Below are positions 1 through 45,147 of a DNA stretch of 45,147 bases, piece after piece. Source of the DNA: a virus; the IMG/VR virus record IMGVR_UViG_3300041935_000006, positions 1-45,147 of that record; one strand, written 5' to 3'. The notes under the pieces are model-generated. The model did not search any database. It was not told where the DNA came from and saw nothing but the letters and a program-made list of their open reading frames with translations. Both the position numbers and the translations under genes were made by a program. The number at the start of each line of letters is the position of its first letter. Position 1 is the stretch's first letter.

Positions 1-127
1 TTGATGATTCAGCACGCACAACCCCCCGCGCGCGCTGTTAGTGAGAGCTCTTCACGTCTGCATCGTCGTCGTCGTCGTCACTATCGTCGTCGTCGTCACC
101 CGGGCCGACCGGGTTCGGGTCGAACAG
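1..127. repeat. Terminal direct repeat, left copy (identical to 45021..45147)
   Basis: Read directly: bases 1-127 (ttgatgattcagcacgcaca...ggttcgggtcgaacag) recur base for base at 45021-45147. The unique sequence is therefore 45020 bp and the window closes on itself. The junction lies inside coding sequence. Confidence 0.95.
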
Positions 128-460
128 CCCGGCCTGCTTTTCGCTCGGCTCCATCGGCCGCGCGGTCACGAGCTCGTTCGTGTCGCCGCGAATGGTGAGC
201 ACCCGACGCGCGGTGTAGTCGCGCTTCTCGTACACGGGCACCTCACGCAACTCGATGCCGGTGCGCACCTCCTCGGCCAGATCTCCGATCACGCGAGAGC
301 TCGCCTTGAGGTCCTTGGAGATCCGCTGCGCCGTGAGCGAGCGCTCGAGCAAGAGACGTTGATTGTTGAGCACCTCGCGCGAGAGCTCGCTCGACTTGAG
401 GGCGCGCTCGGCGTCGGAGAGCTTGCACGGCAACTTTTTCGTGACGGGTGCACCGGACAT
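38..460 (-). CDS. Hypothetical coiled-coil protein with poly-Asp C-terminal tail
   Basis: ATG at 460 follows GAAAGG. Third-position G+C is high. The tail DDDDDSDDDDDD is encoded by (GTC)n runs at 64-97. On the closed circle its stop lies 18 nt upstream of the helicase start. Confidence 0.6.
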   Translation of the reverse strand: MSGAPVTKKLPCKLSDAERALKSSELSREVLNNQRLLLERSLTAQRISKDLKASSRVIGDLAEEVRTGIELREVPVYEKRDYTARRVLTIRGDTNELVTARPMEPSEKQAGLFDPNPVGPGDDDDDSDDDDDDADVKSSH

Positions 461-518
461 GACGAATCGAACCTTTCTCGGCCGGCAGTGCGGCCAAACG
501 ACACGAGAGCGCGCCGAG

Positions 519-1232
519 CTACTCGGCGAACAGCGAAAGGGTATGAGGCCGAGCGAGTCGCGCGGCGGCGACGTCGTATTGCTCGACGAGGGCCTCGGCG
601 CCGACCGAGTTGCGCAGCTCAGAGCGCGCGGCGATCAGCGTCGTGCCACCACCCGCGCACGGGTCGACGACAAGTTGACCGGGCCGCGAGTAGTCGCGCA
701 CGAGCGCTTTCATGGCGTCGGTGCGCTTGCCACCCATGACGACGCGATCACCCTTGCCGGTGAACACGTACGCACCCGGGAGCGTGCCCCACCCCATCAA
801 CACGCGCGGTCGCGCGACGACAAGCCAGCAAGACCAGCTCGACGGCCCATCGCCGAGCAACCGCACGCGAGAGCCTATCTCAACGAGCGGGAGAGGCGCG
901 AACACATAGCGATCAGCGCTCGCGAGCTCGTCGGCCCATGCCGCGGCGAGCGTGTGATCGGTAAGGCTCACGAACCAGCCGCGGGTGCGGTCTGAAAAGA
1001 ACCGCACGCACTCGCGCACGTCGTCGGGTGTCCACGCTGCATAGTTGATCGGCCGCGTGACCTTGCGGTGCCCGTACGCCGGATCGTGGTGCCCATCGTT
1101 GCGCGTGCCGTCGTCGTGACCTGAGTGTGTGCGCGCCGAGTAAGGTGCGTCGGTGATCAGCGCGTCGGGCTCGACGTCGGCGAGCACATCCTGATAGCGG
1201 CCGAGGCGCAGCTCGCACCGTAGCTCGGTCAT
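519..1232 (-). CDS. DNA methyltransferase (N6-adenine/N4-cytosine type, beta-class motif order)
   Basis: Catalytic motif ITDAPYS (DPPY-like) lies N-terminal to the AdoMet motif VVDPCAGGGTTLIAA. Its start overlaps the upstream gene stop as ATGA. Confidence 0.85.
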   Translation of the reverse strand: MTELRCELRLGRYQDVLADVEPDALITDAPYSARTHSGHDDGTRNDGHHDPAYGHRKVTRPINYAAWTPDDVRECVRFFSDRTRGWFVSLTDHTLAAAWADELASADRYVFAPLPLVEIGSRVRLLGDGPSSWSCWLVVARPRVLMGWGTLPGAYVFTGKGDRVVMGGKRTDAMKALVRDYSRPGQLVVDPCAGGGTTLIAARSELRNSVGAEALVEQYDVAAARLARPHTLSLFAE

Positions 1233-1636
1233 GCTTGCACCTTGCCGAACGTCGCGGTGACGAGCTCGCCGACCTTACGCTCAACCTGACCGTACTTCGT
1301 CGCGAGGCGTACCCACTCGGTGCCGGCCTTGTCGGTGTGCGTCTTTTTCGGCCGCGGCTCGGTGCGCAGCTGCGCGCTTACGCCGAGGCTCGTGAGGTAC
1401 GACCGCACCCGGCCGCGGTCGCTGATCTCGTACCCGCGAAAGCCCTCGATGGGTCGCCACTGCTCGTCGGCCGCGGCGAGTGCGTTGCTAATCGCATCGT
1501 CTGTGCTCACGACACCACCAAGTGCACGGGCCGCACCCATGACGGCACGAGCGGCACGAGCCATAGGACACCGCGTTGTGTGAGCCGCACGAATGCCGAC
1601 GCGCGGTGCACGCTCACGATCTGCGCGCCGCACCAT
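1229..1636 (-). CDS. NUMOD4-motif protein (homing-endonuclease-related, catalytic HNH motif not evident)
   Basis: WRPIEGFRGYEISDRGRVRS matches the NUMOD4 pattern. The downstream segment VGELVTATFG sits where HNH_3 proteins carry VHRLVaeaF, and the His is missing. The start is uncertain: third-position G+C is low before about 1540-1564. Confidence 0.55.
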   Translation of the reverse strand: MVRRADRERAPRVGIRAAHTTRCPMARAARAVMGAARALGGVVSTDDAISNALAAADEQWRPIEGFRGYEISDRGRVRSYLTSLGVSAQLRTEPRPKKTHTDKAGTEWVRLATKYGQVERKVGELVTATFGKVQA

Positions 1637-1679
1637 CGCGACTGCACCGCGTCGAACACCGCGACGGGATCGCCGACAC

Positions 1680-1919
1680 TCATCGGCGAGCTCGCGCAGC
1701 GCGACGGGGGCGAGCCTCGAGCGCCTCGGGCACGACGTCGCGAGTCATGCTCGAGATCGCAACCTTGCGGCCGGTCGCGGTGTGCAGTCGCGTCGCCGTC
1801 GCAAGGTTCGCGTTGCCCTCACACGCACGCGCAATCGCGGGCAACGAGACCTCGGCATTGACTGACAGTCGACTGCGCGAACCCCACCCCTCGCGCTCGA
1901 GCCATTCGGTTAGCCTCAT
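1680..1919 (-). CDS. Cro-like small HTH DNA-binding protein
   Basis: 79 aa with an HTH-like segment RLSVNAEVSLPAIARACEGNANLATATRL. It is divergent from a second HTH gene. Its ATG abuts the palindromic promoter/operator at 1917-1946. Confidence 0.7.
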   Translation of the reverse strand: MRLTEWLEREGWGSRSRLSVNAEVSLPAIARACEGNANLATATRLHTATGRKVAISSMTRDVVPEALEARPRRAARARR

Positions 1920-1946
1920 AACGCCGCGTTATAACGCCGCGTGGTG
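1917..1946. promoter_or_regulatory. Palindromic promoter/operator, site 1 (divergent switch)
   Basis: cATAACGCCGCGTTATAACGCCGCGTGGTG. Positions 1926-1946 are an exact 21-mer copy of 3000-3020. The central TTATAA (1929-1934) is itself palindromic. A TTGTAG -35-like hexamer lies 16 nt away on the minus strand. Confidence 0.6.
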
Positions 1947-2618
1947 CGCACTACAAGCGAGAGCGGTGATGCACACGCTGATCGCAAACTTGGTTGCAGG
2001 TTGCAGGCCCTCTCGCGCACACTCCCGCGCATGACCGCGCGACCGCGACCCACTGCACCCCGAAAAGCCAGAAAACCCGCGCAAAACGTAGCCCGACGCG
2101 AGCCCGTATGGCTGAAAGAGGGCGCGCGCTTGAAAGCGATCCTCGCCGAGCGCGGGATCTCTCACTCGGATTTCGCGCGTGAGTGCGGCGTCGCGTACCA
2201 CAACGTGTATCGCTGGACACGCGGGCACGAGTTCACCGAGGACAATCAAGGCATCGCCTGTGCAGTGATCGGCATCAAGCCCGAGGCACTCTCGACGACG
2301 CGGCGCAGTGCATTGCCGGCGATCGAGGCGGCGAAGCGCGCATTCCTCGCTGCGCGGCGACGCGAGCTCGAGGCCGGCGCCGTGCTCGAGGCGTTCAAAG
2401 CCAAGCCTATCGCCGCGTCGCTCACCGCGGCCGATTGGAGCGTGCTCAAGTCGATCCGATTCTTTGACGAGGCGTTGCGACCCTCGGTCGCATTCTTCGA
2501 GGCGGTCGCGTTCGCCCTCAAGGGTGCAATCCGCGTTGACGAGATTGCGGCCGTCGCCGCCGAAAACGCCGAGCTCGACCGCACCCTCGCCCACAAAGGA
2601 TCACTTCCACGTCGCTAG
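1941..2618 (+). CDS. XRE-family HTH regulator (CI-like candidate repressor)
   Basis: HTH segment GISHSDFARECGVAYHNVYRWTRG. GTG 1941 lies 7 nt after the TTATAA -10, the same geometry as site 2, which suggests a leaderless start. An alternative ATG at 2031 has no obvious RBS. Confidence 0.7.
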   Translation: MVRTTSESGDAHADRKLGCRLQALSRTLPRMTARPRPTAPRKARKPAQNVARREPVWLKEGARLKAILAERGISHSDFARECGVAYHNVYRWTRGHEFTEDNQGIACAVIGIKPEALSTTRRSALPAIEAAKRAFLAARRRELEAGAVLEAFKAKPIAASLTAADWSVLKSIRFFDEALRPSVAFFEAVAFALKGAIRVDEIAAVAAENAELDRTLAHKGSLPRR

Positions 2619-2733
2619 TCTCGTCATTTCGCGCACTTTTCGCGTTGCGAGATCCGGCTCACGCTCGTTAGGTTGCGATCTCTCGCGTGCCTCGTTCGGG
2701 TGGGAACGAATTGGCGCGCGAAGTGGGGGACGC

Positions 2734-2967
2734 ATGGCCGACACGTACAGCGCACGAGAGCTCGCACGCGCAGCGGGCTACCTGATCCGCACGATGCCCG
2801 AGGGTGCCGTCACCGAGCGCGTGTATCCGTTCGGCCGCGTGCTCGAGATCGGGCCGGCCGCGACCGACCTCGAGATCGTGCGACACGCTCGCCGTTTTCT
2901 CGCGGTGCCCGTATGCACGCGATCGCCCGGTAAAACAGGCGGATCCGCGAGCGGCGTCGCCCTCTGA
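2734..2967 (+). CDS. Hypothetical protein (77 aa)
   Basis: ATG 2734 follows a G-rich RBS (aagtggggga). Third-position G+C is high. Confidence 0.5.
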   Translation: MADTYSARELARAAGYLIRTMPEGAVTERVYPFGRVLEIGPAATDLEIVRHARRFLAVPVCTRSPGKTGGSASGVAL

Positions 2968-2979
2968 TCGTTAGTTCGC

Positions 2980-3020
2980 TTGCATGGCGTCACAACGCGG
3001 CGTTATAACGCCGCGTGGTG
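2980..3020 (+). promoter_or_regulatory. Promoter/operator, site 2 (TTGCAT-N17-TTATAA, leaderless geometry)
   Basis: TTGCAT at 2980-2985 and TTATAA at 3003-3008. The 30-bp near-perfect palindrome CACAACGCGGCGTTA|TAACGCCGCGTGGTG spans 2991-3020. The ORF start GTG 3015 is 7 nt after the -10. Confidence 0.6.
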
Positions 3021-3704
3021 AGTGCAGCGGCGCATAACGACAACGGGTCGATCTCGATCGACTGCGATGAGTGGATCTCCGACGAGCACGACAACCCGTC
3101 GTGCACGTGTGAGCCATGCGTGCGCGTGCGCTCGAGCGACGAGGCCGAGCGACGTCGACGCGAGGCTCTCACGTGCGGGGGGCTGTTCCCGCTCGCGCAC
3201 GTGTTGCTCGGTGAGGGGTGGGTCGACGAGGACGGCAAGGGGGGCAACGTGGTGGCGCAACCGAGACAAGATGCAGTCGACGTAAAGAGCTTGGCGCAAC
3301 GTGCGCTCGGCGATGTGTTTGAGCAGCTCGAGCGGGTCGGGAGCGCCGGCCGGGAGAAGTGCAGGCCGAGCTCGACGTACTACTCGGCGGCGACGCCCTA
3401 CCCGGCCGAGCACCGGATCAAGCGGCACGAGGCGGTCGAGCTCTTGCGCTGCGCCGAGAACGCTCTCGACTACGCACGGGTTCACCTCGACTACCTCGAG
3501 CGCGACGAGGTGCGGGTGCGCGGGGGGCGCGCCTCGTTGCAGGTCGAGCCCGGTGCGCGTGTGCTCGTCGCCGACGACGAGAACGCGAGCACATGGGCCG
3601 GCGTGCTCGTCGACCTCGGCGAGGGCGAGTCGTGCCGCGTGCGCGACGACGCCGGGCTACTGCACACGCTCGACGTGCGCGACCTGAGAGCGTTCGCCGT
3701 ATGA
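3015..3704 (+). CDS. Hypothetical protein (229 aa)
   Basis: The ORF has no internal Met. A GTG start at 3015 or 3018 lies inside the promoter palindrome. Its stop overlaps the next start as ATGA. Confidence 0.6.
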   Translation: MVSAAAHNDNGSISIDCDEWISDEHDNPSCTCEPCVRVRSSDEAERRRREALTCGGLFPLAHVLLGEGWVDEDGKGGNVVAQPRQDAVDVKSLAQRALGDVFEQLERVGSAGREKCRPSSTYYSAATPYPAEHRIKRHEAVELLRCAENALDYARVHLDYLERDEVRVRGGRASLQVEPGARVLVADDENASTWAGVLVDLGEGESCRVRDDAGLLHTLDVRDLRAFAV

Positions 3705-4042
3705 ATGCCGGCGAAATCGTTGCCCGGCTCGAGAAGATGCGAGGGCAAGATCCGACCATGGTGCAAGGGTCGCTCGCGATCCTGATCGGCGACGTGACGC
3801 GCTCGGCCGAGCTCGCGCTGTACCGCTCGCGACTGCACGACGATCGCACCGTTACGTGCAACACGACGACGCTCTCAATCTGTGACATCCGCGCGTGGTC
3901 GGTCGCCTCGCCGCCGCACCTTGCTTATCCCGAGGTCAACGGCCCGATCACGTACGTCTGGCTGCGCGACGTGCGCGACGCCTTTGTGCTGCGCGGCGAC
4001 TTCTCCGAAAAGCTGAGTGCAGCGGTCGAGGGGCAACCATGA
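3701..4042 (+). CDS. Hypothetical protein (113 aa)
   Basis: ATG 3701 forms an ATGA overlap with the upstream stop. Codon bias looks coding. Confidence 0.6.
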   Translation: MNAGEIVARLEKMRGQDPTMVQGSLAILIGDVTRSAELALYRSRLHDDRTVTCNTTTLSICDIRAWSVASPPHLAYPEVNGPITYVWLRDVRDAFVLRGDFSEKLSAAVEGQP

Positions 4043-4245
4043 TCATCTATTTCCATCGAGACGGGAGTCAGACCATCTCGCGCGCGCTGCGCCGGCTCTC
4101 GAACGAGGACCGTCACCTTGAGTACGACGCGGTGCGAATCGTCGAGGTGCGCGACGACGGCGCGATCATCGTCAAAAAGGACCGATACGGCACGGCAAAC
4201 CGCGAGCTCTTGAGCCCGCTCCCGCTCGGGAGGGTGACGGCGTGA
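4039..4245 (+). CDS. Hypothetical protein (68 aa)
   Basis: ATG 4039 forms an ATGA overlap with the upstream stop. Confidence 0.55.
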   Translation: MIIYFHRDGSQTISRALRRLSNEDRHLEYDAVRIVEVRDDGAIIVKKDRYGTANRELLSPLPLGRVTA

Positions 4246-4598
4246 GCGACCACATCATGACCCGGCGAGTGCCGCCGCTCGTGCTCGTCGAGAGCCCGTA
4301 CAAAGGCAACATCGCACTGAACGTGCGGTACGCGCGCCTCGCCATGCGCGACTGCTTTTTGCGCGGCGAATACCCGTTCGCCTCGCATCTTCTGTACACA
4401 CAGCTCGGCATCCTCGACGACGCGATCCTCGCCGAGCGCGAGCTCGGGATCGCGGCCGGCCTCGCGTGGGGGCGGCATGCCGAGGCGTCGATCGTGTACA
4501 CCGATTGCGGGATCAGCGAGGGCATGCGCTACGGCATCGAGACGGCAAAGGAAGCGGGCCGGCCCGTCGAGCTGCGCCGATTGAAGGGGTGGCCATGA
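4242..4598 (+). CDS. Nucleoside 2-deoxyribosyltransferase-like / DUF4406-like protein (tentative)
   Basis: The pattern VESPYKGN...N..YA......G.PFASHL....L.D....ER..G......W...A....VY.D.GIS.GM..GI..A resembles that small phage family. GTGA overlap at 4242. Confidence 0.4.
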   Translation: MSDHIMTRRVPPLVLVESPYKGNIALNVRYARLAMRDCFLRGEYPFASHLLYTQLGILDDAILAERELGIAAGLAWGRHAEASIVYTDCGISEGMRYGIETAKEAGRPVELRRLKGWP

Positions 4599-5488
4599 AA
4601 CAGACAGTCGTGAAGGTGCCCGGTATCTACTCGGGTCACGAGGTCGACTACAGCGAGATCGACGCGGTGAATCAGTCGACGCTCAAGGCGATCGCGAAGA
4701 GCCCGCTGCACTACCAACACGGGTTGACCCATCCCAAGAAACAAACCAACCCGATGCGCCTCGGCCTCGTCGCGCACACGGCCGTGCTCGAGCCGCACCG
4801 CCTCGACACCGACTTTGCTCTATGGGCACCGGTCGACGAGGACACCGGCGAGATCTTGAAGGATGACTTCAAGGGCAACGTGTACAAAGCGTTTGCCGCG
4901 CGCGCCGAGCTCGAGGGCCGCACCGTGATCAAGCAACGCGACCTCGACACCGCAAAGCGGATCGGCGAGGCGGTGCGCGGCAACGCTCTTGCGATGCGGT
5001 ACCTCAAGAAGGTGCGGGCCGAGCTGATCCTCGTTTGGCGTGATGAGGAAACCGGCATCGTCTGCAAAGCGCGCCTCGATGGTGTGTCGGAGTCGGTGCC
5101 CGACGTGCTCGTCGAGCTCAAGAGCGCGGTCGACGTCGCACCGTGGGCCTTCGAGTCGGCCTTTGCAAAGCGCATGTACCATCTACAGACCGCGTTCTAC
5201 TCCGATGGGTGGAAAGCCTGCACGGGCCGCGAGCTGCACGGCGGCAAGTGCATCGCCGTCGAGAACCTCGAGCCGCACGACGTGATCGTGTACGACCTCG
5301 CCGAGGTGACAGACATCGGGCGCGAGACGAAACGCGAGCTCCTCGGCAAGGTCGCCGAGTGCCGGCGCTCGGGTCTGTGGCTCGGTCAATCGCCGCTCGA
5401 GGAACGAACACTCAGATTGCCGAAGTGGCTCGAACCCGACGACGAGAACACGCTCGACGAGCTCGGCCTCGAGTATGCAAATGGGTGA
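4595..5488 (+). CDS. PD-(D/E)XK exonuclease (RecE/DUF3799-like)
   Basis: Nuclease core ARLDGVSESVPDVLVELKS followed by YHLQTAFY, as in phage PD-(D/E)XK exonucleases. ATGA overlap at 4595. Confidence 0.7.
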   Translation: MKQTVVKVPGIYSGHEVDYSEIDAVNQSTLKAIAKSPLHYQHGLTHPKKQTNPMRLGLVAHTAVLEPHRLDTDFALWAPVDEDTGEILKDDFKGNVYKAFAARAELEGRTVIKQRDLDTAKRIGEAVRGNALAMRYLKKVRAELILVWRDEETGIVCKARLDGVSESVPDVLVELKSAVDVAPWAFESAFAKRMYHLQTAFYSDGWKACTGRELHGGKCIAVENLEPHDVIVYDLAEVTDIGRETKRELLGKVAECRRSGLWLGQSPLEERTLRLPKWLEPDDENTLDELGLEYANG

Positions 5489-6002
5489 GGCGCCGCCACT
5501 CAAGAAACCGCTCGATTGGGACGAGCTTTACCCGGGCCGCTTCCTCAAGGCCGGGCAACTCGGCGAGCGCAAACCCACCCTCACGATCAAGGCCGTCGAG
5601 GTCGACCGGTTGCTCGACGACAAGGGGCAAGAGAAGGTCAAAGGGGTGATCACCTTCAACGAGATCGCCTATCAGCTCGCGCTCAACAAAACGAACGGGT
5701 TGTGTTTGCGCGAGATGTTCGGCCGCGAGCTCGAGAAGTGGGTCGGGCACAAGGTCACGCTGTACCGCTCGGCCGTCGAGTCGGGCTCGCGCAAGGGTGA
5801 GCCCGCGGTGCGTGTGTGGGGGTCACCCGAGCTCGAGGCCGACCGCACCGTCGAGGTCAAGTTGCCGCGCAAACGGCCTATGCAAATGGTCATGCACGCG
5901 GTGAAGGGCCGAGAGGCGACACAACGCGAGGTCGACAAACACCCGACCGAGGGCAAGGCGCCGGGCAACACGAGCGGCGGCGAGCCGCCCCCGTTCGGGT
6001 GA
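5475..6002 (+). CDS. Putative ssDNA-binding-like protein (weak call)
   Basis: It sits between two exonucleases. It has the OB-like core pattern seen in phage DUF669-type proteins (TLTIKAVE...ITFNE...LALNKTN...FG.E...W.G..V.LY). The C-terminal tip GGEPPPFG is reminiscent of SSB tips. Confidence 0.35.
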   Translation: MQMGEAPPLKKPLDWDELYPGRFLKAGQLGERKPTLTIKAVEVDRLLDDKGQEKVKGVITFNEIAYQLALNKTNGLCLREMFGRELEKWVGHKVTLYRSAVESGSRKGEPAVRVWGSPELEADRTVEVKLPRKRPMQMVMHAVKGREATQREVDKHPTEGKAPGNTSGGEPPPFG

Positions 6003-6005
6003 GTC

Positions 6006-6734
6006 GTGTTGCTCGACGGCTCGCTCGCGTGGTGGTCGTACCCGCTCGTCGTGCTCGATTTCGAGACAACAGGCGTCGACCCGGTTGAGTGCATGCCCGT
6101 GAGCGTCGCGGCAATCCGGCTCGAGCACGGCGTCGAGCGCGGCGCCTTTTACTCGTTGCTCCGACCGGGCATCCCGATCCCTCCCGGAGCGACCGAGATC
6201 CACGGCATCACCGACGAGCAGTGCGCCGACGCTCCCGAGCTCGTCGACGTGATGCCGCAACTGTTCGAGCTCGCGCAAGGGGCCGCACCCGTTGCCTACA
6301 ACGGGAGCACGTACGACAAGCTGATCTTTCACCGGTTCATCGTCGGGTCTGACTGTCCGCTTTTCGAGCCGGCGCAAGAATGGATCGACCCGCTCGTCAT
6401 GGTGCGCGCGATCGATCGGTACGTGCGCGGCACGGGCCGGCACAAGCTCTCGGCGACGTGCGAACGTTGGGGGGTGCCCATGCCCGAGGGCGCGGCGCAC
6501 AATGCGCTCGAGGACGTGCGGGCCGTCGGCCGGCTCCTCGCCGAGCTCGTGCGCATTGGCAAGGTGCGCGAGCACGTCACGTTGCGGCGACTGCTCGAGT
6601 ACACCGCGATCAAGCGGGCCGAGCAAAACGTGCAGTTCGAGAAGTACCTCGCGCGCGTCGCCGCCAAAGAGGCGCAAACCGCGATCGATTTCGACAAACT
6701 TGAGGGGGTCCCCGATGGCTGTAGATCTGACTGA
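6006..6734 (+). CDS. DnaQ-like 3'-5' exonuclease (DEDDh)
   Basis: ExoI VVLDFETTG, ExoII-like VAYNGSTYD and ExoIII HNALEDV motifs. Confidence 0.85.
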   Translation: MLLDGSLAWWSYPLVVLDFETTGVDPVECMPVSVAAIRLEHGVERGAFYSLLRPGIPIPPGATEIHGITDEQCADAPELVDVMPQLFELAQGAAPVAYNGSTYDKLIFHRFIVGSDCPLFEPAQEWIDPLVMVRAIDRYVRGTGRHKLSATCERWGVPMPEGAAHNALEDVRAVGRLLAELVRIGKVREHVTLRRLLEYTAIKRAEQNVQFEKYLARVAAKEAQTAIDFDKLEGVPDGCRSD

Positions 6735-7386
6735 AAGCGACACATTCACGGCGACGGTCACCGTGCCAGAGGCCGGCGACGATCGAAAGGCGGCGAGCGT
6801 CGTGCCTGCCTTTCAAGCGCTAGCGAACCGCACCAAAAATCTGAAAGGACGGCTCGACGACTTCCTCGCCGACCCGCACACGTGGGCCGACGATCAGCGG
6901 TTCGACGGTGACATCGTCCTCGGGCCGGGCTCGGTGATCCGTCACGTCGTCGCCGCGCAGCGCAAGATCGTGTTGCCGCTCAAACCTGACTTCCCGACCG
7001 TGAATTGGCTGTTCGCGCCGACACCGACGCCGGTATGGGCATGCGGCTCGACGGCCTCGGCGCTGTTCTTTACGATCGGGCCGGGCATCTTGCCCGACGG
7101 GGGGCAACTCGTGTCCGTGAGCGCGAGCGTCAACACCTCGATCGACGTGACGCTCAAACTCGCACGCATTACGTACGACACCTCGATCGCCGGGAGCGGC
7201 ACCGAGGGCACGGTGCTCACCGACTCGTTTTCGCCGACGGGCACCGAGGAGCACATACTCAACATCGGCGCGTTGAGCGCGCTGATCAACAACGCAACGA
7301 GTCTGTTCCGCATCGCGATCGATCCCGACGCGAGCGGGCCGGGCCTCGCGTTGCAGTGGATCGAGCTCGTCGTCACCGACCCTTGA
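6715..7386 (+). CDS. Tail-fibre-like protein encoded outside the tail module
   Basis: ATG 6715 follows GAGGGGG. The N-terminus ESDTFTATVTVPEAGDDRKAASVVPAFQALANRTKNLKGRLD matches the conserved phage fibre N-terminal pattern (P.dGD..a.sv....LAnRT.yLk). Confidence 0.5.
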   Translation: MAVDLTESDTFTATVTVPEAGDDRKAASVVPAFQALANRTKNLKGRLDDFLADPHTWADDQRFDGDIVLGPGSVIRHVVAAQRKIVLPLKPDFPTVNWLFAPTPTPVWACGSTASALFFTIGPGILPDGGQLVSVSASVNTSIDVTLKLARITYDTSIAGSGTEGTVLTDSFSPTGTEEHILNIGALSALINNATSLFRIAIDPDASGPGLALQWIELVVTDP

Positions 7387-7948
7387 GCCCGGCGTGCTCG
7401 AGGAACATCGCCGCGCACTCGGGATCGGAGAGGAACGGGCCGAACACGCGGCGAAACTTCTCGCCCAGATACTTGGCTTTGAACTCGGGCACGACGGCGC
7501 ACTCGGCCTCGAAAGCGTAGTCGTACCCTTGCTCGATCACGATCTCGCACATCGAGGCGTACACGCTCACGAGCGCGGCGAACGCCTGCCACTCGCCGTG
7601 CGGCATCTTGAGGCCGACGTGATAGATCCGGGTCTGCACCGCGCGCATTTCGGCGATCTCTGAGAGCATCTCGGCGACGCGCTGCGCCGGCAACGGGGGC
7701 TCGCGAGGCGTTGCGCGGGTGCGCATGGGGCGGCCGAAGGTGCGACTCGGGTTGCGGCTGATCGCCCTACCCTCGTCGGGTGTCACCTCGCCGAGCTCGT
7801 GCAGGCGAGAGGCGAGCTCGGGCTCGGCGAATGCAGGGCACCGGCAGAAGGCGCCGGGCACGTCTCGAGCGAACACGCACGTATCAGGGAAGTGAAGGTG
7901 TCGCGTGTGCCCGCACGCGGCGCACGTGTCTTGCGGATCATGTGTCAT
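7373..7948 (-). CDS. Zinc-ribbon-motif protein (191 aa)
   Basis: ATG 7948 forms an ATGA overlap with the upstream stop. N-terminal motif CAACGHTRHLH...CRCPAF. The C-terminal domain has no recognisable motif. Confidence 0.6.
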   Translation of the reverse strand: MTHDPQDTCAACGHTRHLHFPDTCVFARDVPGAFCRCPAFAEPELASRLHELGEVTPDEGRAISRNPSRTFGRPMRTRATPREPPLPAQRVAEMLSEIAEMRAVQTRIYHVGLKMPHGEWQAFAALVSVYASMCEIVIEQGYDYAFEAECAVVPEFKAKYLGEKFRRVFGPFLSDPECAAMFLEHAGLKGR

Positions 7949-8301
7949 GGTCGAGGGCCTTTCGGTTCCGGGGGGGGCGGCACGAAACAGCCGCACATGA
8001 AACGGGGCCGGTCGTGCTTAGTGCACACTCCGCAAAAGCTGTGGCCGAAATCGCCCCCGTGCAGGCACGACGCACGGTCGAGGTCATCGAGCTCGGGCTC
8101 GACGCCGAACCGCGCGCGGTACTCGTCGGCCGTCACTTGCCGAGCTTCTGTCGGATTCTGCCGGAGCTCGTCACGGATCCCGTGCAGCTCGCTCACGACG
8201 CGATCGAGTGAGTCGGCCGCGCTCGCGTGCGGTGCGAGGGTGCCGGCGACGTACGCCGCGACGAGGGCGAGAGCGAGTGCGGTTCGCTTGAGCAAGGTCA
8301 C
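7945..8301 (-). CDS. Secreted Cys-rich protein (signal peptide)
   Basis: GTG 8301 forms a GTGA overlap. The N-terminus (M)TLLKRTALALALVAAYVAGTLAPHASA-ADS looks like a cleavable signal peptide. The C-terminus has 5 Cys (CLHGGDFGHSFCGVCTKHDRPRFMCGC). Confidence 0.55.
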   Translation of the reverse strand: MTLLKRTALALALVAAYVAGTLAPHASAADSLDRVVSELHGIRDELRQNPTEARQVTADEYRARFGVEPELDDLDRASCLHGGDFGHSFCGVCTKHDRPRFMCGCFVPPPPEPKGPRP

Positions 8302-9626: not shown

Positions 9627-9675
9627 TGTGAACATGTAGTCAAGTGCACATGTTCACGTGTACACATGTCACCGC
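9627..9675. repeat. ACATGT-core repeat array A (three 16-bp units), candidate centromere/operator
   Basis: GTGAACATGTAGTCAA / GTGCACATGTTCACGT / GTACACATGTCACCGC. ACATGT cores sit at 9632, 9648 and 9664. GTGAACATGT (9628-9637) and ACATGTTCAC (9648-9657) are inverted. The array ends 20 nt before the parA ATG. Confidence 0.8.
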
Positions 9676-9694
9676 GTCGTGTAAGCCTGCGCGC

Positions 9695-10378
9695 ATGGCT
9701 GTTCGGATCTGTTTCGTCGGCGGCAAAGGGGGCCTCGGCAAGTCGACCCTCGCGATTTCGTGCGGGGTCGAGTGGCACCGTCGAGGTCGCCGCGTGCTCC
9801 TCGTCGACGTCGACGACGAGCAACTGTCGGCCGAGGAGTGGCACGACGACGCGCTCGAGCTCGAGCTCGACGCACCCCTCGTCGTGAGCATGGGTAACGA
9901 GGTGCGCACTCAGCTCGAGCCGGCCTCGGCCGCGTTCGAGATCGTGATCGTCGACACGGCCGGCCGCAACGGTCGGCGCTCGGCACACGTCATGGGACAG
10001 TGCGACCTTGCCGTGCTCCCGTGCGGGCCGAACCGGATCGAGCTGCGCCGACTCCCGAAAACGGTTGCGCAAGTGCGCGACGTGCAGGCGGTGCGGCCCA
10101 AGCTCGACGCCGCGATCCTCGTGACGCGCAAGCAACCAAACACGGTGATCGGGAGGCAGGCCCGGCGAGCGATTGAGGAATGCGACTTCCCGATCCTCGA
10201 CGTCGAGCTGTTCTATCGCATCACGTACGGCGAGGCGATCGCGGCCGGGCTCGGGCCGACCACGTACGACCCATCGAGTGACGCCGCACGCGAGGTCGGC
10301 GCACTCGTTGACGAGCTCGAGCGCCGGCTCGAGCTGCACACCACAACCAAACCAAAGAGGAAGCATGCCACCCGCTAA
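9695..10378 (+). CDS. parA: ParA-family partition ATPase (small, type Ib-like)
   Basis: Deviant Walker A CFVGGKGGLGKST, Walker A' LLVDVD and Walker B-like IVIVDTAG. 227 aa with no N-terminal HTH extension. Confidence 0.85.
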   Translation: MAVRICFVGGKGGLGKSTLAISCGVEWHRRGRRVLLVDVDDEQLSAEEWHDDALELELDAPLVVSMGNEVRTQLEPASAAFEIVIVDTAGRNGRRSAHVMGQCDLAVLPCGPNRIELRRLPKTVAQVRDVQAVRPKLDAAILVTRKQPNTVIGRQARRAIEECDFPILDVELFYRITYGEAIAAGLGPTTYDPSSDAAREVGALVDELERRLELHTTTKPKRKHATR

Positions 10379-10721
10379 ACCGACACCGACCGTGCGCTCG
10401 TCGACGCGCGCGAAAAAGCAACCGGCACCGCTCGAGGGCCGCGCGCTGCAACGCGAGCTCGACCGGATCGGCCGCAAACACGAGAGGCCGGCCGAGGGTG
10501 AGCACCCCGTCGCCGGCCGCGGGATCGTCAAGATGCCCGGCCGCGCCACCAAAGAGGGCCGCAAGGGTGAGCGCGTCACTCGTCGCGCGACGTTCTATCT
10601 CCCGCTCGAGGTGCACGACGAGCTCGAGGTCACCGCCAAGCGCCGCGGTATGTCGGTGAGCAACGCCGCGGCCGAGCTCCTCGCCGACGCGCTCGGTGTC
10701 ACGCTCGAGGCGACGGGATGA
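10365..10721 (+). CDS. Ribbon-helix-helix DNA-binding protein (ParG/omega-like candidate centromere binder)
   Basis: ATG 10365 follows AGAGGAAG and overlaps the parA end. A long basic N-terminal tail precedes the RHH pattern RATFYLPLEVHDELEVTAKRRGMSVSNAAAELLADAL. Confidence 0.65.
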   Translation: MPPAKPTPTVRSSTRAKKQPAPLEGRALQRELDRIGRKHERPAEGEHPVAGRGIVKMPGRATKEGRKGERVTRRATFYLPLEVHDELEVTAKRRGMSVSNAAAELLADALGVTLEATG

Positions 10722-11400: not shown

Positions 11401-11675
11401 ACCGCGCGCAGCGCCGAGCCGGCAAGATCCCGCACTCGTTCCGGGTGCGCACCGGGATCCACTACATGACCAACGGCACCTTCGTCGCGTTCGCGCGCAT
11501 CGATCGCGAGGACGGCTCGACGCAATGGTGGGAGTCGACGCCGTACACCGACGAGGCCGAGGCCGAGCGGCACCGCGACGAGCTCTCGACCGGCATCCGA
11601 GCGATCCTCGCAAAGCAGCAAACGAACCTCGCCGGACTGCGCGTGCACCCGGTGACGAAAGGCGGTGACGCGTGA
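11397..11675 (+). CDS. Hypothetical protein (92 aa)
   Basis: GTG 11397 forms a GTGA overlap and follows AAGGGAGGG. Confidence 0.5.
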   Translation: MNRAQRRAGKIPHSFRVRTGIHYMTNGTFVAFARIDREDGSTQWWESTPYTDEAEAERHRDELSTGIRAILAKQQTNLAGLRVHPVTKGGDA

Positions 11676-11719
11676 ACATGACGACAAGTGAACATGACGA
11701 CAAGTCAACACGTAACCAG
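11672..11719. repeat. ACATGT-family repeat array B (16-bp units x3)
   Basis: GTGAACATGACGACAA occurs twice exactly (11672-11687 and 11688-11703), followed by GTCAACACGTAACCAG. Cores ACATGA/ACAAGT/ACATGA/ACAAGT/ACACGT fall every 8 bp from 11676. Confidence 0.8.
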
Positions 11720-14010: not shown

Positions 14011-14040
14011 CACAACGCGGCGTTACAACGCGCGCCGAGT
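14011..14040 (+). promoter_or_regulatory. Promoter/operator, site 3 (half-conserved copy)
   Basis: CACAACGCGGCGTTA (14011-14025) is identical to 2991-3005. It is followed by CAACGCGCGCC. The -10-like hexamer is TTACAA. It lies 36 nt upstream of ATG 14076. Confidence 0.5.
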
Positions 14041-14075
14041 TGTGTAGTGTCCGAACCGAACGGGAGGGGGCAACC

Positions 14076-14444
14076 ATGGGCATGTGTGAAGTGCACGAGG
14101 AACAGACCGAGCTTGCCGGCGAGATCGGCGAGCTGATCGCGCGACGTCGGGCCGAGTGGCGCAGCTCGCACGGTGCCGGCGCCGACTACATGAACATTTC
14201 GATGGGTGCGATCACCGAGGCTCTAGCAACCGAGATGATCCAGCATTGTCGAGCGTCGTTTCGTTACACCCCATCGCTCGAGCAAATGGCGCGGATCTGC
14301 GCGGAATATCCTCCCGTCCTGATCGAGGCCGTCGGCCGCGTGATCGGAGCGCCCGCGCATGAGGTCATACGCTACACACAACCGCTCGTCGCCGCGCTGA
14401 TCGAGGTGCTCGCCGAGCGGGTCGGGAAGCGGCCGTCCGCATGA
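14076..14444 (+). CDS. Hypothetical protein (122 aa)
   Basis: ATG 14076 follows GGGAGGGGG. Confidence 0.6.
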   Translation: MGMCEVHEEQTELAGEIGELIARRRAEWRSSHGAGADYMNISMGAITEALATEMIQHCRASFRYTPSLEQMARICAEYPPVLIEAVGRVIGAPAHEVIRYTQPLVAALIEVLAERVGKRPSA

Positions 14445-15328: not shown

Positions 15329-15603
15329 AGCCACGCAAGAAGCACCCCAACACCGTGACGATCTACGGCCTCGCGCAGCTCGCGCTCGACACGTTCGGAG
15401 CGCTCACCGCGGCCGAGGTGCGTGCCCTGATCGCCGACGATCCCGAGGGCCTCGCGCCTCACGAGCGGTACGACCTCACCCTCTCGCGCGTCACGGCCGC
15501 GCTGCGCTCGATGGTGCTCGACCGCTCGGCCCTCTCGGTCACCGAGGACGGGATCGCGCGCTACAGGCTGCGATCGGCGTCACGTGTACATGTGAACATG
15601 TAG
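15325..15603 (+). CDS. Winged-helix-like small protein (92 aa)
   Basis: GTG 15325 forms a GTGA overlap and follows GGGAGG. Segment LTAAEVRALI...LTLSRVTAALRSMVLDRSALSVTEDGIARYRL. The last six codons (RVHVNM) are encoded by repeat array C. Confidence 0.55.
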   Translation: MKPRKKHPNTVTIYGLAQLALDTFGALTAAEVRALIADDPEGLAPHERYDLTLSRVTAALRSMVLDRSALSVTEDGIARYRLRSASRVHVNM

Positions 15604-15628
15604 ACATGTGAACATGTGAACATGTTCA
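15585..15628. repeat. ACATGT-core repeat array C (five contiguous 8-bp units)
   Basis: ACATGTGA ACATGTAG ACATGTGA ACATGTGA ACATGTTC with cores at 15588, 15596, 15604, 15612 and 15620. It ends in the perfect 12-bp palindrome TGAACATGTTCA (15617-15628). It contains the stop codons of both convergent genes. Confidence 0.85.
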
Positions 15629-16294
15629 TACGATGCCGACGGCCATGCCGTGTGCGTGGATCTTGCGCAGTAGATCGAGGCCCGGGTCGGGCTTGACCGG
15701 CGAGAAGTGCAAGTGTCCGGCCGGCCCTCGGAACGTTGCCGCGATGTGTGCCGGCAACACGGTCGGGAACACGTCGCCGTTGAGGATCGGCACGCGCATC
15801 GGGAGCGAGTAGGCCGAACAGAGCGCCGCGTTGAGCGCGATCACGCTCGCGATCTGCGCCGGGAAAAACTCGCCGTACTCGATCAGCCGACCATGGATCC
15901 GCTCGGTGCGCCGGGTACGGGTGAAACCCTTGTCGGGTGCCTTGCCGTGCCCGCGGTTGATGATCTCGATCCCGACGCCGTACGAGTTGCCGCCCCCGTC
16001 GGCGCAGTGCGCGCACCTCGCGTCGGCGTCGGCGCACTGATAGATCTCGCCGAGCTGATCGACGATGAAGTGCACCGAGAGAGCCTCGGGCTTGCCCGTG
16101 GTCGCGCTCTTGTGATCACGCATGAACTCGAACGCGCGATCGGCCGAGTTCTCGGCGGCCGTCCAATGATTGATGATCCATCGAGTCTCGTGCCGCATGC
16201 GCGTCAAGAAGTGCATGCCGGTCGACGTCCAGGGCCGCACCGGTGCGAGGCACCTGTACGACTGACCGCGCACGATGATCTCGCCGACGCTCAC
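15626..16294 (-). CDS. Endolysin, N-acetylmuramoyl-L-alanine amidase (Amidase_2/PGRP type)
   Basis: Motifs INHWTA, SVHFIVDQLGEIYQ and AHCADGGGNSYGVGIEIIN, as in T7-lysozyme-type amidases. GTGA overlap at 16294. Confidence 0.85.
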   Translation of the reverse strand: MSVGEIIVRGQSYRCLAPVRPWTSTGMHFLTRMRHETRWIINHWTAAENSADRAFEFMRDHKSATTGKPEALSVHFIVDQLGEIYQCADADARCAHCADGGGNSYGVGIEIINRGHGKAPDKGFTRTRRTERIHGRLIEYGEFFPAQIASVIALNAALCSAYSLPMRVPILNGDVFPTVLPAHIAATFRGPAGHLHFSPVKPDPGLDLLRKIHAHGMAVGIV

Positions 16295-39479: not shown

Positions 39480-39500
39480 GGGGGCCGGTTCCTTTCACGG

Positions 39501-39540
39501 TGACATGTTCACATGTGTACACGTGCACATGTACACGTTA
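39501..39540. repeat. ACATGT-core repeat array D (8-bp units)
   Basis: ACATGTTC ACATGTGT ACACGTGC ACATGTAC with cores at 39503, 39511, 39519 (ACACGT) and 39527. It lies between the stop of 39538..40260 and the start of 39219..39479. Confidence 0.8.
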
Positions 39541-40260
39541 CTCGGCGTCGCCGTCCTCGCCGAGGATTCGTTGCACCGCTGCCTCGACGTCGCGCGCGGC
39601 GGCCGGGTGCGGCAAGAGGGCCTCGATAATCGCTTTCTTGAGGCGTTGCCACTTCGGGTGATCGCGGATCGTGCGGTCCTCGAGCATCTCGCGGTCGCGC
39701 TCGAGCCTCGTTTTTTGCGTGAGGGCTCGCGAAAAGGCGTCGGTGAGCTGCGCGCGCTCGCGGGGGGTGAGCTTGCCGTTTTTCAGCTGCGTTCGCAGGA
39801 GCTTGATCAGGCGTTCGTAGTCGCGCAGCGCCGAGGCCGTGCCCTCGAGCTCCTCGTCGTCGGTGTCGTCGTCGAGCTCGAGCTCGGGCTCGGGTTCCTC
39901 GGCCGCACCCCATGCCGAGAACGGGATGCCAAAGTGGCTCGCGAGCGCGCGGCGGTACCGATCGTCGGGCACATACAGGCCGTCTCGCCACTGCGCGATC
40001 GATTGCTTGCTCGCGCCGACCGCCTTGCCGATCTGAGAGAGCGAGCCGGGCACGTCGAGCAACATGCGTTGCCCCTCGGAACGGATCGGTTTCGCCGGTG
40101 CGCGCAGCGGTTCGGGTGCCGGCGCCGGCTCGTCGTCGAGCTCCTCGTCGTCGAGCTCGTCGGCCTCGAGGTCGGGCTCGGCGCTTGACGCTCTTGACGT
40201 CGACGCGCGCGCGCTTGACACACGCGCTTTCGGGCTCGATTTCGTTGCGGTTTTACTCAT
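39538..40260 (-). CDS. HTH-domain protein with acidic flanks and coiled-coil C-terminus (regulator or small terminase candidate)
   Basis: HTH segment LSQIGKAVGASKQSIAQWRDG. An AT-rich promoter-like stretch lies upstream (40275-40300). Confidence 0.6.
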   Translation of the reverse strand: MSKTATKSSPKARVSSARASTSRASSAEPDLEADELDDEELDDEPAPAPEPLRAPAKPIRSEGQRMLLDVPGSLSQIGKAVGASKQSIAQWRDGLYVPDDRYRRALASHFGIPFSAWGAAEEPEPELELDDDTDDEELEGTASALRDYERLIKLLRTQLKNGKLTPRERAQLTDAFSRALTQKTRLERDREMLEDRTIRDHPKWQRLKKAIIEALLPHPAAARDVEAAVQRILGEDGDAE

Positions 40261-43470: not shown

Positions 43471-45039
43471 TCATGACGGCACTCCCGGTTGAGCAACCCG
43501 ATAGACCCCGTCGACGCGCACGAGCACCCCCTCTTCGACGAGCTCGCGGGTGATCGAGTTGCCGTCGCGCTTGCGCATGCCGGCGCCGCGAATGATGGCG
43601 GCGAGCGTGCGGCACTCCTCACGCGCGCACGCGGCGAGGGCTCGCTCGCGCAGCTGCGTTGACTTGGCTCGCTCGCGGTCGACGTCGTCATGCTCGGGCT
43701 TCTCGATCTCGCGCCAAGAGAGCGACGAGAAGTCGAGCCGCGTGCGGATCTCGGGTTTGGCACTGCCGAGGCGGTTTTTCGCGACCTCGAGATCGACGAC
43801 GCCGACCTCGCCGGTGACCGAGCGCAACCCGATCAGCAAGTGCGCGGCGTACTCGATAGCCCGCGACTCGGCGCCGGCACCGAGCGCGCTGATATCCTGA
43901 TCGCGCTTGCCCGTGCGATACCCCGCGCGGCTCATCTCCGAAATCGCGACGACGAGCGTGCCGCGGCGGCAAATGCGCTTGATCACCCGCACCGTCGCTT
44001 CGATCTGCTCGCGGGTGGTCTCGTACTGCAACGCCTCGCGACACGGCACGGTTTGGATCGAGTCCACGAACATCACGCGCGGCCGGTCGCCTGCGCCCTC
44101 GAGCAAGAGCCGCTCGGCATCCTCGAGAAACAGCTCGTCGTCGTACGGGTCGATCACGACGATCGCGCGAGCTCGGGAGCTGCGCGCGAAGGTCTCACGT
44201 CGACCGGGGTCGACACCCTCGAGCGCCTCGCGGTCGTGCCCGTCGAGCTGACCGAGCCGCGTGACAATCGCCTCGCGCGACTCGTCGGCCGCGAGGAATG
44301 CAACCGCGCACCCGGCCCGCTCCCATCCATCGGCGAGCCATGCGCACAGATTCGTCTTACTCGCACCCGGCGCACCGAGCAGTGCGACAAAGCGGCCGAG
44401 AGGCAGACCCCCACGCGTCGCCGCGTCGAGCGCCGGCAACCCGGTCGGCAAACGCGTGCCGACGGCGCCGAGTGCGAGTGCGAGCTCAGAGAGCGTCGGG
44501 ATGCGCGCGACAGACTCGTCACGGTCGACGGCCTCAAGGGCTGCGCGCGCACCATCGAGCGCGGCGAGGTACCGCGGGAGCTCGTCACTCCCGGCCTTGC
44601 CGGCGACGAGCGCGGCGGCATCGTGCACCGCGCGTCGACGAGCGAGCCGGCGCAATCGACGCGTGTCGGTCTGATCGCTCGGCATGGTCTCGGTGACCGC
44701 GAGCAAATACTCATCGCCGCCGACGGCACCGAGCCGACCCGCGTCGTGCAGCGCGTCGTGCAACGCGGCCGTGTCGTGAGGTTTGCCCTCCGACGCGAGC
44801 TTGCACAGAACCGCGAAGATCTGGCCGTTCGAGTGCGAGTAAAAGTCGTCGGGCACGACCTTTGACGCGAGCGCGAACCCGGGCAAGAGCATCGCCGCGC
44901 ACAACACCGCGCGCTCGAGCACGAGGTCGTGCAGCTCGAGCCGATCCTCGTGCCGCAAGCTCGCCGCTCGGCCGTTGCTTGGCGTCGGTTTCACGGCCCG
45001 CACCGGCCCCCCACTCGTGTTTGATGATTCAGCACGCAC
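43471..45039 (-). CDS. DnaB-family replicative helicase with winged-helix-like C-terminal extension
   Basis: DnaB N-domain pattern ERAVLCAAMLLP...DFYSHSNGQIFAVL. Walker A LLGAPGASKT and Walker B VMFVDS. The C-terminal 70 aa (RTLAAIIRGAGMRKRDGNSITRELVEEGVLVRVDGVYRV) look like a wHTH. The GTG start at 45039 is uncertain. Confidence 0.8.
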   Translation of the reverse strand: MRAESSNTSGGPVRAVKPTPSNGRAASLRHEDRLELHDLVLERAVLCAAMLLPGFALASKVVPDDFYSHSNGQIFAVLCKLASEGKPHDTAALHDALHDAGRLGAVGGDEYLLAVTETMPSDQTDTRRLRRLARRRAVHDAAALVAGKAGSDELPRYLAALDGARAALEAVDRDESVARIPTLSELALALGAVGTRLPTGLPALDAATRGGLPLGRFVALLGAPGASKTNLCAWLADGWERAGCAVAFLAADESREAIVTRLGQLDGHDREALEGVDPGRRETFARSSRARAIVVIDPYDDELFLEDAERLLLEGAGDRPRVMFVDSIQTVPCREALQYETTREQIEATVRVIKRICRRGTLVVAISEMSRAGYRTGKRDQDISALGAGAESRAIEYAAHLLIGLRSVTGEVGVVDLEVAKNRLGSAKPEIRTRLDFSSLSWREIEKPEHDDVDRERAKSTQLRERALAACAREECRTLAAIIRGAGMRKRDGNSITRELVEEGVLVRVDGVYRVAQPGVPS

Positions 45040-45147
45040 AACCCCCCGCGCGCGCTGTTAGTGAGAGCTCTTCACGTCTGCATCGTCGTCGTCGTCGTCA
45101 CTATCGTCGTCGTCGTCACCCGGGCCGACCGGGTTCGGGTCGAACAG
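45021..45147. repeat. Terminal direct repeat, right copy (identical to 1..127)
   Basis: See the left copy. Exact 127-bp identity. Confidence 0.95.

Follow-up and report, generated by a model that had tools for sequence, protein, structure and literature searches.

IMG/VR virus record IMGVR_UViG_3300041935_000006 holds, at positions 1917-1946 of the 45,147 nucleotides analysed here (the window), a 30-bp palindromic element, cATAACGCCGCGTTATAACGCCGCGTGGTG, that lies between a leftward gene for a 79-aa Cro-like protein and a rightward gene for a 195-aa helix-turn-helix (HTH) protein. We consider it probable that this element is a phage-specific operator, placed over two outward early promoters that flank a regulator cassette. 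A first-pass annotation of the same DNA had overlooked a near-identical copy at 2991-3020 and a partial copy at 14011-14044, and had read the element as a bistable switch, in which one shared palindromic -10 would fire in one orientation at a time to give two divergent leaderless transcripts, for a Cro-like protein from ATG 1919 and for a CI-like protein from GTG 1941. Comparisons draw on 11 related metagenomic loci, recovered via the HTH protein and the motif and showing 37-77% protein identity; they are cited by locus number where they must be told apart, and counts for the promoter module of the HTH gene are over 10 of them.

The palindromic element and the candidate promoters beneath it

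The copies of the element, and the parts of the two outward promoters, are as follows.

1917-1946, no strand: site A, candidate operator over the leftward early promoter, called from enrichment and conservation
2991-3020, no strand: site B, candidate operator over the rightward early promoter, a 30-bp palindrome with the -10 TATAAC at 3004-3009
14011-14044, plus strand: site C, partial copy with left arm and -10 as in site B (CACAACGCGGCGTTACAAC)
1951-1956, minus strand: -35-like TTGTAG of the leftward promoter
1928-1933, minus strand: -10-like TATAAC of the leftward promoter, within self-complementary GTTATAAC
1680-1919, minus strand: Cro-like gene, 79 aa, first of the leftward arm, with its ATG 8 nt after TATAAC and no Shine-Dalgarno (SD) sequence
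2980-2985, plus strand: -35-like TTGCAT of the rightward site-B promoter
3015/3018-3704, plus strand: first gene of the rightward early operon, starting at GTG 3015 or 3018 (5 and 8 nt after TATAAC), with no SD sequence

Site A is composed of two 13-bp units, TAACGCCGCGTTA (1919-1931) and TAACGCCGCGTGG (1932-1944), which are identical at 12 of 13 positions and each contain the near-palindrome AACGCSGCGTT. This much of the first-pass description, two such units around a central TTATAA (1929-1934), is read in the sequence, as are its coordinates, the ATG (1919..1917) of the 79-aa minus-strand open reading frame (ORF), the GTG at 1941, which is followed by a second GTG at 1944, and the minus-strand arrangement TTGTAG (1956 to 1951)-16-TTATAA-9-ATG. 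The octamer GTTATAAC is its own reverse complement and occurs at 1928-1935 in site A and at 3002-3009 in site B, and the -10 region of both sites is pseudo-symmetric and readable on both strands. Site B reads CACAACGCGGCGTTATAACGCCGCGTGGTG, that is CACAACGCGGCG-TTATAA-CGCCGCGTGGTG, with 12-bp arms that match at 11 of 12 positions. Sites A and B are inverted relative to each other, lie 1,074 bp apart and flank the HTH gene and a 77-aa gene. Site C retains one good unit and the -10, with the second arm shifted by 4 nt, such that its inverted 12-bp arms stand 10 nt apart rather than the 6 nt seen elsewhere; it lies 4 nt past a stop codon, upstream of an SD-led gene (14076-14444), and all three copies are intergenic.

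The motif is strongly enriched. TAACGCSGCGT has six exact matches against 0.08 expected, a count reached in none of 100 shuffles, whilst CGTTAYAACG has five matches against 0.07 expected, and TTATAA is found in only two places in the whole 45-kb genome, at 1929 and 3003, within sites A and B. Each tandem 13-bp unit has a dyad at its centre (TAACGC-S-GCGTTA), and further dyads arise where units join, as GCGTTA meets TAACGC.

The promoter-like geometry around these sites is conserved. The leftward module, cTTGTGg-17-TA(T/C/G)AAC-8-ATG of the Cro-like gene, is present in 11/11 loci (with GATAAT in L007 and 9 nt before the ATG in L006), and its -35 TTG, its -10 and the palindrome arms are kept, whilst the spacer is unconstrained in its 5' half. 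The palindrome covers the 3' part of this promoter's spacer, the -10, the discriminator and the start codon; the Cro-like start codon adjoins the palindrome in all 11 relatives, and the geometry leaves no space for an SD sequence. The first-pass proposal of a leaderless Cro-like transcript from a -10 at the palindrome centre is consequently still plausible, its geometry being retained in every relative. At site B, TTGC(A/G)N precedes TATAAC in 11/11 relatives, and the full module of TTGC(A/G)N, 18 nt (17 in L005), TATAAC (TACAAC in L001), 5 to 8 nt and a start codon is found in 10 of the 11 loci. L005 also has TTG-17-TATAAC-8-GTG, although its gene is called from a start approximately 100 nt further downstream. 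The start codon of the site-B gene adjoins the element in the relatives and is ATG in L002, L007 and L026. In the window, ORF 3015-3704 appears coding from its first codon (third-position G+C 0.87), its N-terminus is kept in L003, and it offers no alternative start before the conserved D..IADEHDDPxCxC block. Together with a separate module ahead of the HTH gene, three promoter-like modules are thus kept across the relatives, each with a start codon 5-9 nt after its -10; SD-like sequences precede many other genes and none of these three.

An indication of a dedicated regulator comes from L005, the most divergent relative, which carries a different palindrome, CGTCATGACG, in four exact copies within 1 kb (4754-5794) and nowhere else in 11.4 kb, against 0.92 matches expected with one mismatch allowed. 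The copies occupy the spacers of the leftward and site-B promoters, overlie the start codon of the HTH gene and fall within that gene's 3' end. Identity of sites inside each genome, combined with differences between genomes at equivalent promoter positions, is the signature of an operator with a cognate regulator, rather than that of recognition by RNA polymerase. L026 has a hybrid spacer. At site B, L002 (6836-6862), L008 (2608-2634) and L010 (1455-1485) have about 2.5 tandem 13-bp units with two GTTATAAC octamers 13 bp apart, indicating that the number of units per site varies between phages, and in L009 (1075-1100) an additional partial copy of the module stands about 80 bp upstream.

It is unlikely, in our estimate, that the sites are only a strong promoter present twice, with a -10 octamer and a G+C-rich spacer and discriminator liked by the host RNA polymerase and with no regulator involved. 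The best-conserved core is indeed GTTATAAC, at fixed distances from the TTG and the start codon, and it resembles a housekeeping -10 consensus. However, the arms are much better conserved than the spacer positions next to them and the dyad symmetry of the arms is unnecessary for RNA polymerase, the HTH gene's own promoter lacks such arms, and L005 has another palindrome at the equal positions.

The start and putative promoter of the HTH gene

The HTH gene, whose start bears on the shared-promoter switch, is preceded by a promoter-like module of its own.

1992-2005, plus strand: tandem GGTTGCA GGTTGCA, whose first TTGCAG (1994-1999) is the -35-like element of the HTH promoter
2018-2023, plus strand: -10-like CACACT of the HTH-gene promoter, 7 nt before ATG 2031
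2031-2618, plus strand: HTH regulator gene, 195 aa, candidate repressor, with its start placed by homologue alignment and coding signature

The plus-strand frame is open from GTG 1941, yet 12 homologues, mostly of 155-193 aa, have no shared 30-codon extension and align from approximately ATG 2031, beginning with a K/R/P-rich arm and a conserved R.P.W..EG motif. Base composition agrees with this boundary: pooled over six genomes, G+C by codon position is flat across 1941-2030 (0.62/0.63/0.59) and becomes approximately 0.70/0.50/0.78 past the basic arm. Substitutions between the window and L003 likewise fall as 13/7/8 by codon position in 1941-2030, compared with 13/11/31 in the HTH domain. An in-frame start adjoining the palindrome is missing in four of the ten relatives (L002, L006, L009 and L010), and the GTGGTG of the window mirrors the CAC/CAT arm across the palindrome, a symmetry that also explains why start-like triplets recur there.

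The tandem GGTTGCA repeat noted in the first-pass annotation is present as described, although the duplication is specific to the window; gTTGCRg itself occurs in 10/10 relatives. In the window the module reads TTGCAG(1994)-18-CACACT(2018)-7-ATG 2031, and the general form gTTGCRg-17/18-hexamer-7 to 9 nt-ATG is found in nine of ten loci, where the hexamer is CACACT, CACAAT, CAGAAT, CATGAT or AAGAAT. L002 deviates (TTGCAG-15-CATAAC-12-ATG). This promoter module stands to the right of site A, at a distance of about 85 bp (some 65-100 bp), and the palindrome is absent from it. The HTH start at 2031 and the 79-aa gene start at 1919 are divergent and 111 bp apart, a synteny found in all relatives.

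The shared-promoter switch for two leaderless HTH genes is not supported, given an HTH gene that starts at 2031 and has a conserved promoter-like module to itself, and we regard the switch as very unlikely. The first-pass annotation had itself set out the contrary outcome, a protein beginning at 2031 from a separate promoter, and this is the arrangement indicated by sequence comparison. In favour of a shared -10 are the self-complementarity of GTTATAAC, the 22 nt from A1919 to G1941, which is near the 23-bp class of bidirectional promoters (PMC12825309), and a palindrome-adjoining in-frame start with an open frame into the HTH gene in six of ten relatives. Where that start is present, however, its distance to TATAAC varies from approximately 0 to 8 nt, and the segment that it would add evolves like non-coding DNA. 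The rightward -35 candidate, TTCGGT, which had already been called weak, is indeed poor and unconserved; its place is corrected to 1905-1910, inside the Cro-like coding sequence, 18 nt from TTATAA and 19 nt from TATAAC. 

There is a small chance, which we put a little below that of the promoter-only explanation, that GTTATAAC nevertheless fires both ways, giving at site A a rightward transcript (for a long HTH isoform from GTG 1941/1944, or an HTH mRNA with a 90-nt leader) and at site B a leftward RNA antisense to the 77-aa and HTH genes. If so, polymerase orientation and operator occupancy would together set the balance between regulator and early genes. A later start was also considered for the HTH gene, TTG 2130, as called in the source annotation (P0001, 162 aa) with a good SD sequence; it was rejected, as it cuts off the conserved upstream W..EG motif. 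Two gene starts are thereby corrected, the source call for the HTH gene having been too short and the first-pass start too long.

Candidate regulators and the weighing of the operator reading

The HTH protein combines a basic N-terminal arm, an XRE/cI-type HTH, a long helix and a helical C-terminal domain, and matches Pfam HTH_26 (E = 1.8e-4). In its predicted structure (predicted local distance difference test, pLDDT, of 84), the N-terminal domain superposes on ClgR, C.BclI, C.AhdI and lambda cI at 1.2-1.5 A over approximately 65 residues (Foldseek), whilst the all-helical C-terminal half returned no structural match in the same search. The designation CI-like holds for the XRE/lambda-cI-type HTH and does not extend to a full CI protein, as there is no Peptidase_S24 match.

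The 79-aa ORF is coding by its third-position G+C pattern and by its substitutions between the window and L003 (13/16/31 by codon position), and its protein family has 25 representatives among 1.8 billion proteins. The protein has an HTH-like pattern and four helices predicted at low confidence (AlphaFold model, pLDDT 50); it gave no Pfam match, its profile search of the PDB returned only HigA at E = 0.29, and hhalign against the HTH family gave 1% probability. Compared with PHROGs, the family yields weak phage-repressor matches in 4 of 22 members. The label Cro-like comes from size, position and pattern only. The window's own 79-aa protein was not returned by the protein search, though its homologues were, and it was probably left uncalled in the source annotation.

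Under the operator reading, both outward promoters follow the plan TTGnnn-17/18-TATAAC-5..8-start with no SD sequence, and the first genes of both arms would probably be expressed from leaderless or near-leaderless mRNAs, because the -10 lies 5-8 nt before the start and no SD sequence is present; the HTH gene's own module also looks leaderless. A dimeric phage HTH protein would occupy the 13-bp units and block RNA polymerase at both outward promoters together. The likeliest binder would be the 195-aa XRE/cI-type protein, and the 79-aa Cro-like protein may bind too or instead. The outcome would be that replication, recombination and virion genes are kept off, as by lambda CI at OL/OR, possibly in the setting of a plasmid-type prophage.

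GTTATAAC agrees at 7/8 positions with the Caulobacter RpoD -10 consensus GCtANAWC (PMC8144410), which may not be the consensus of the host, and leaderless mRNAs are common in the Caulobacter group (PMC4117421). A Caulobacter-type -10 with leaderless genes is compatible with a high-G+C host of that kind.

Several observations weigh against the operator reading. Scanning for E. coli-type sigma-70 promoters found none in 1600-3200 and none at sites A, B or C, since TATAAC has C instead of T at position 6; TTATAA lacks A at position 2. The -10 assignment relies on conserved geometry and on likeness to an alphaproteobacterial consensus, and recognition by RNA polymerase could suffice to explain GTTATAAC on its own. 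A centre-to-centre spacing of 13 bp between units is unusual for adjacent HTH dimers, and the arm spacing of site C (10 vs 6 nt) does not allow identical binding by a symmetric dimer. No autoregulation of the HTH gene is evident, the window's HTH promoter being without a palindrome, and the Cro-like protein has no significant family match. Nor did the recognition helix track the operator cleanly across the HTH and Cro-like families: L002, for instance, shares the operator, yet its helix has YYHVHRW instead of YHNVYRW. Lysogeny, finally, is suggested solely by genes for a ParA-type ATPase and a ribbon-helix-helix (RHH) protein. From the sequence we infer promoter activity, start sites, leaderless translation, the identity of the binder and lysogeny.

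Alternatively, the palindromes could act as RNA or DNA hairpins, serving as terminators or insulators that end the upstream units at sites B and C, with promoter overlap being secondary. Site B does lie 24 nt past the stop codon of the 77-aa gene, as site C lies close behind its own, and it folds at -32 kcal/mol (z = -2.9), whilst site C retains 12-bp inverted arms despite a different loop. Divergent starts flank site A, however, leaving nothing there to be terminated, and its folding is not stronger than that of shuffled sequence (z = 0.1 to 0.4). No U-tract is present, and a terminator scan found nothing at sites A, B or C. The central S of the arms is C or G whatever its partner, and is often non-complementary (site A of the window, both A and B of L003, and L002); these mismatches argue against selection for an RNA hairpin and fit a dimer centred on each 13-bp unit. 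As the primary role a hairpin is accordingly improbable, to much the same degree as the shared-promoter switch, although an additional insulating role is possible at site B, where read-through RNA would fold strongly.

Least probable of the alternatives is that a replication or partition protein, and no transcriptional regulator, binds the 13-bp direct repeats, or that these are iterons, for although they are tandem (approximately 2.5 units in L002, L008 and L010) and the genome is plasmid-like in its ParA and RHH genes, there are only two to three units per site at a 13-bp period, always exactly over a -10 and a start codon, and arrays of ACATGT with an 8-bp period, one of them at parA, are a much better candidate.

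Gene arms, genome type and known systems

The further genes of the cassette and of the plasmid-like region are the following.

2734-2967, plus strand: 77-aa gene with SD sequence GGGGG, conserved downstream of the HTH gene and lying in the cassette between sites A and B
9644-10378, plus strand: ParA/MinD-type ATPase (Pfam CbiA, E = 1.9e-11)
10173-10721, plus strand: ORF with a CopG-like RHH domain at its C-terminus, directly following ParA

The window represents a closed circle of 45,020 bp, with an exact 127-bp terminal direct repeat (1-127 = 45021-45147) and a G+C content of 0.66. The repeat has the length expected of a k=127 assembler overlap, and a biological terminal repeat is not needed to explain it. 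The called genes form two arms that diverge exactly at site A, a plus arm from approximately 1941 to approximately 15600 and a minus arm from 1919 around the circle to 15626, with a few unconfirmed opposite-strand ORFs inside the plus arm. The rightward genes include, from the site-B gene onwards, gp3015, DUF7768, a PD-(D/E)XK exonuclease (DUF3799) and an RNase T-type exonuclease. The leftward arm runs from the Cro-like gene through a 58-aa gene, a NUMOD4 gene, a methylase and DnaB to, further on, virion genes. Across the genome, the large terminase (TerL), a Mu-type portal, an S49 prohead protease and an amidase represent virion and lysis functions, alongside the DnaB, N6/N4 DNA methyltransferase and exonuclease genes.

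Two overlapping minus-strand ORFs occupy 1229-1683, downstream of the Cro-like gene. One is the conserved 58-aa ORF (1507-1683, minus strand; third-position G+C 0.83); the other is short, carries a NUMOD4 motif only, probably has its real start near 1470, and is either a fragment or a minimal HNH-associated DNA-binding protein. Between the HTH and 77-aa genes, 2619-2733 contains conserved blocks, of which TCGTCATTTCGCGCAC is closely common to L003 and L007 only and CGTTAGGTTGCGATC is found in L003 and, less exactly, in L002. Patterns resembling TTGCGA-17-TTAGGT or TTGAAA-18-TAGCTT occur in L002, L001 and L006. Possibly the SD-led 77-aa gene has a promoter of its own in this interval.

The ParA and RHH ORFs look like a type Ib plasmid partition cassette, and no integrase was found among the 37 ORFs scanned, which are part of the window's ORFs. 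Given these genes and the lack of an integrase in that set, the window is suggestive of a phage-plasmid, that is, an extrachromosomal prophage. Clusters of ACATGT repeats with an 8-bp period lie at 9627-9680, 15567-15644 and 39498-39543, an example of the repeat being GTGTACATGTGAACATGTAGACATGTGAACATGTGAACATGTTCA, whilst a cluster at 11671-11708 has a 16-bp period and carries the variant GTGAACATGACGACAA instead. The first three clusters hold 11 of the 14 ACATGT hexamers in the genome, and are placed at the ParA gene start, where the gene arms converge and upstream of the block of genes for terminase and virion proteins. The four clusters are candidate arrays for a partition centromere or for a regulator.

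The host is probably a high-G+C bacterium. Searches for relatives of known origin returned little: blastn of window positions 1-8000 against GenBank phages gave no matches, IMG/VR searched with the HTH protein and the exact palindrome gave nothing, and 185,579 species genomes yielded neither the HTH family nor relatives of the window. Searches of plasmids with TerL and of phages with ParA gave distant matches at best and no host clue, and the window contained no tRNA genes and no Rfam families. A 20-mer of the element, CGCSGCGTTATAACGCSGCG, had eight matches in genomes (L011-L018, contigs of metagenome-assembled genomes), none with homologues of window proteins; these were rejected as a host clue, as they look like unrelated hairpins. 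Three of the eight contigs are Anaerolineae with identical flanks.

Overall, the analysis gives a testable regulatory map for an unstudied family of ~45-kb high-G+C phages, possibly phage-plasmids. That map comprises three promoters of apparently leaderless type, a repeated candidate operator that differs among relatives as immunity specificities do, and a candidate repressor with an uncharacterised C-terminal domain.

The closest parallel is with lambda, in which cI is flanked by OL/PL and OR/PR, cro is first in one early operon and a leaderless cI mRNA is made from PRM. Here too, a regulator cassette lies between two outward-facing early promoters, each overlapped by copies of one dyad-symmetric site, a small Cro-like gene is first in one arm, the XRE/cI-type HTH protein has a basic N-terminal arm, and the regulator mRNA appears leaderless. 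The differences are substantial. Each putative operator has two abutting 13-bp units, compared with three spaced 17-bp operators in lambda; the HTH promoter is without an operator, so there is no shared control of the PRM/OR3 type and the palindrome at site A overlaps the leftward promoter only; the regulator gene points away from the Cro-like promoter, towards site B; and the HTH protein has no S24 autocleavage domain.

In restriction-modification systems, C proteins bind pairs of palindromic boxes that overlie the promoter of a leaderless transcript. C.BclI and C.AhdI are among the closest structural matches to the HTH domain, and the leftward operon here contains a DNA methyltransferase gene. 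Unlike C proteins, the HTH protein is approximately 120 residues longer with an extra helical domain, its sites would control whole early phage operons, and no restriction endonuclease gene was identified in the window.

A further likeness is to the immB regions of PY54, N15 and phiKO2 (PMC4488713), which belong to extrachromosomal prophages, as the partition genes and the ORFs scanned suggest for this phage. They share with it a divergent repressor and cro, leaderless mRNAs from promoters directly upstream of the starts, and palindromic operators, the last two being predicted here; in the telomere phage PY54 both the cI and cro mRNAs are leaderless (PMC4488713). There is no detectable sequence relationship between the two groups, however, no protelomerase was seen in the window, the host here is probably of high G+C, and the candidate operator lies on the -10 of the cro-type promoter, with a further copy at another early promoter.

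Bidirectional promoters with a shared symmetric -10 have already been described (Warman et al. 2021; PMC12825309), with start sites approximately 10, 18 or 23 bp apart. The self-complementary -10 octamer resembles theirs, as does the spacing of the candidate divergent starts at site A (approximately 22 bp, as a distance between start codons); in contrast, each site here has a conserved -35 in one direction only, and the rightward product of site A is not supported as coding. Since a -10 that fires both ways is already described, it would bring no new principle even if it operates here. Ultimately, the best explanation is a system that would resemble lambda OL/OR in its topology and would involve no new regulatory principle.

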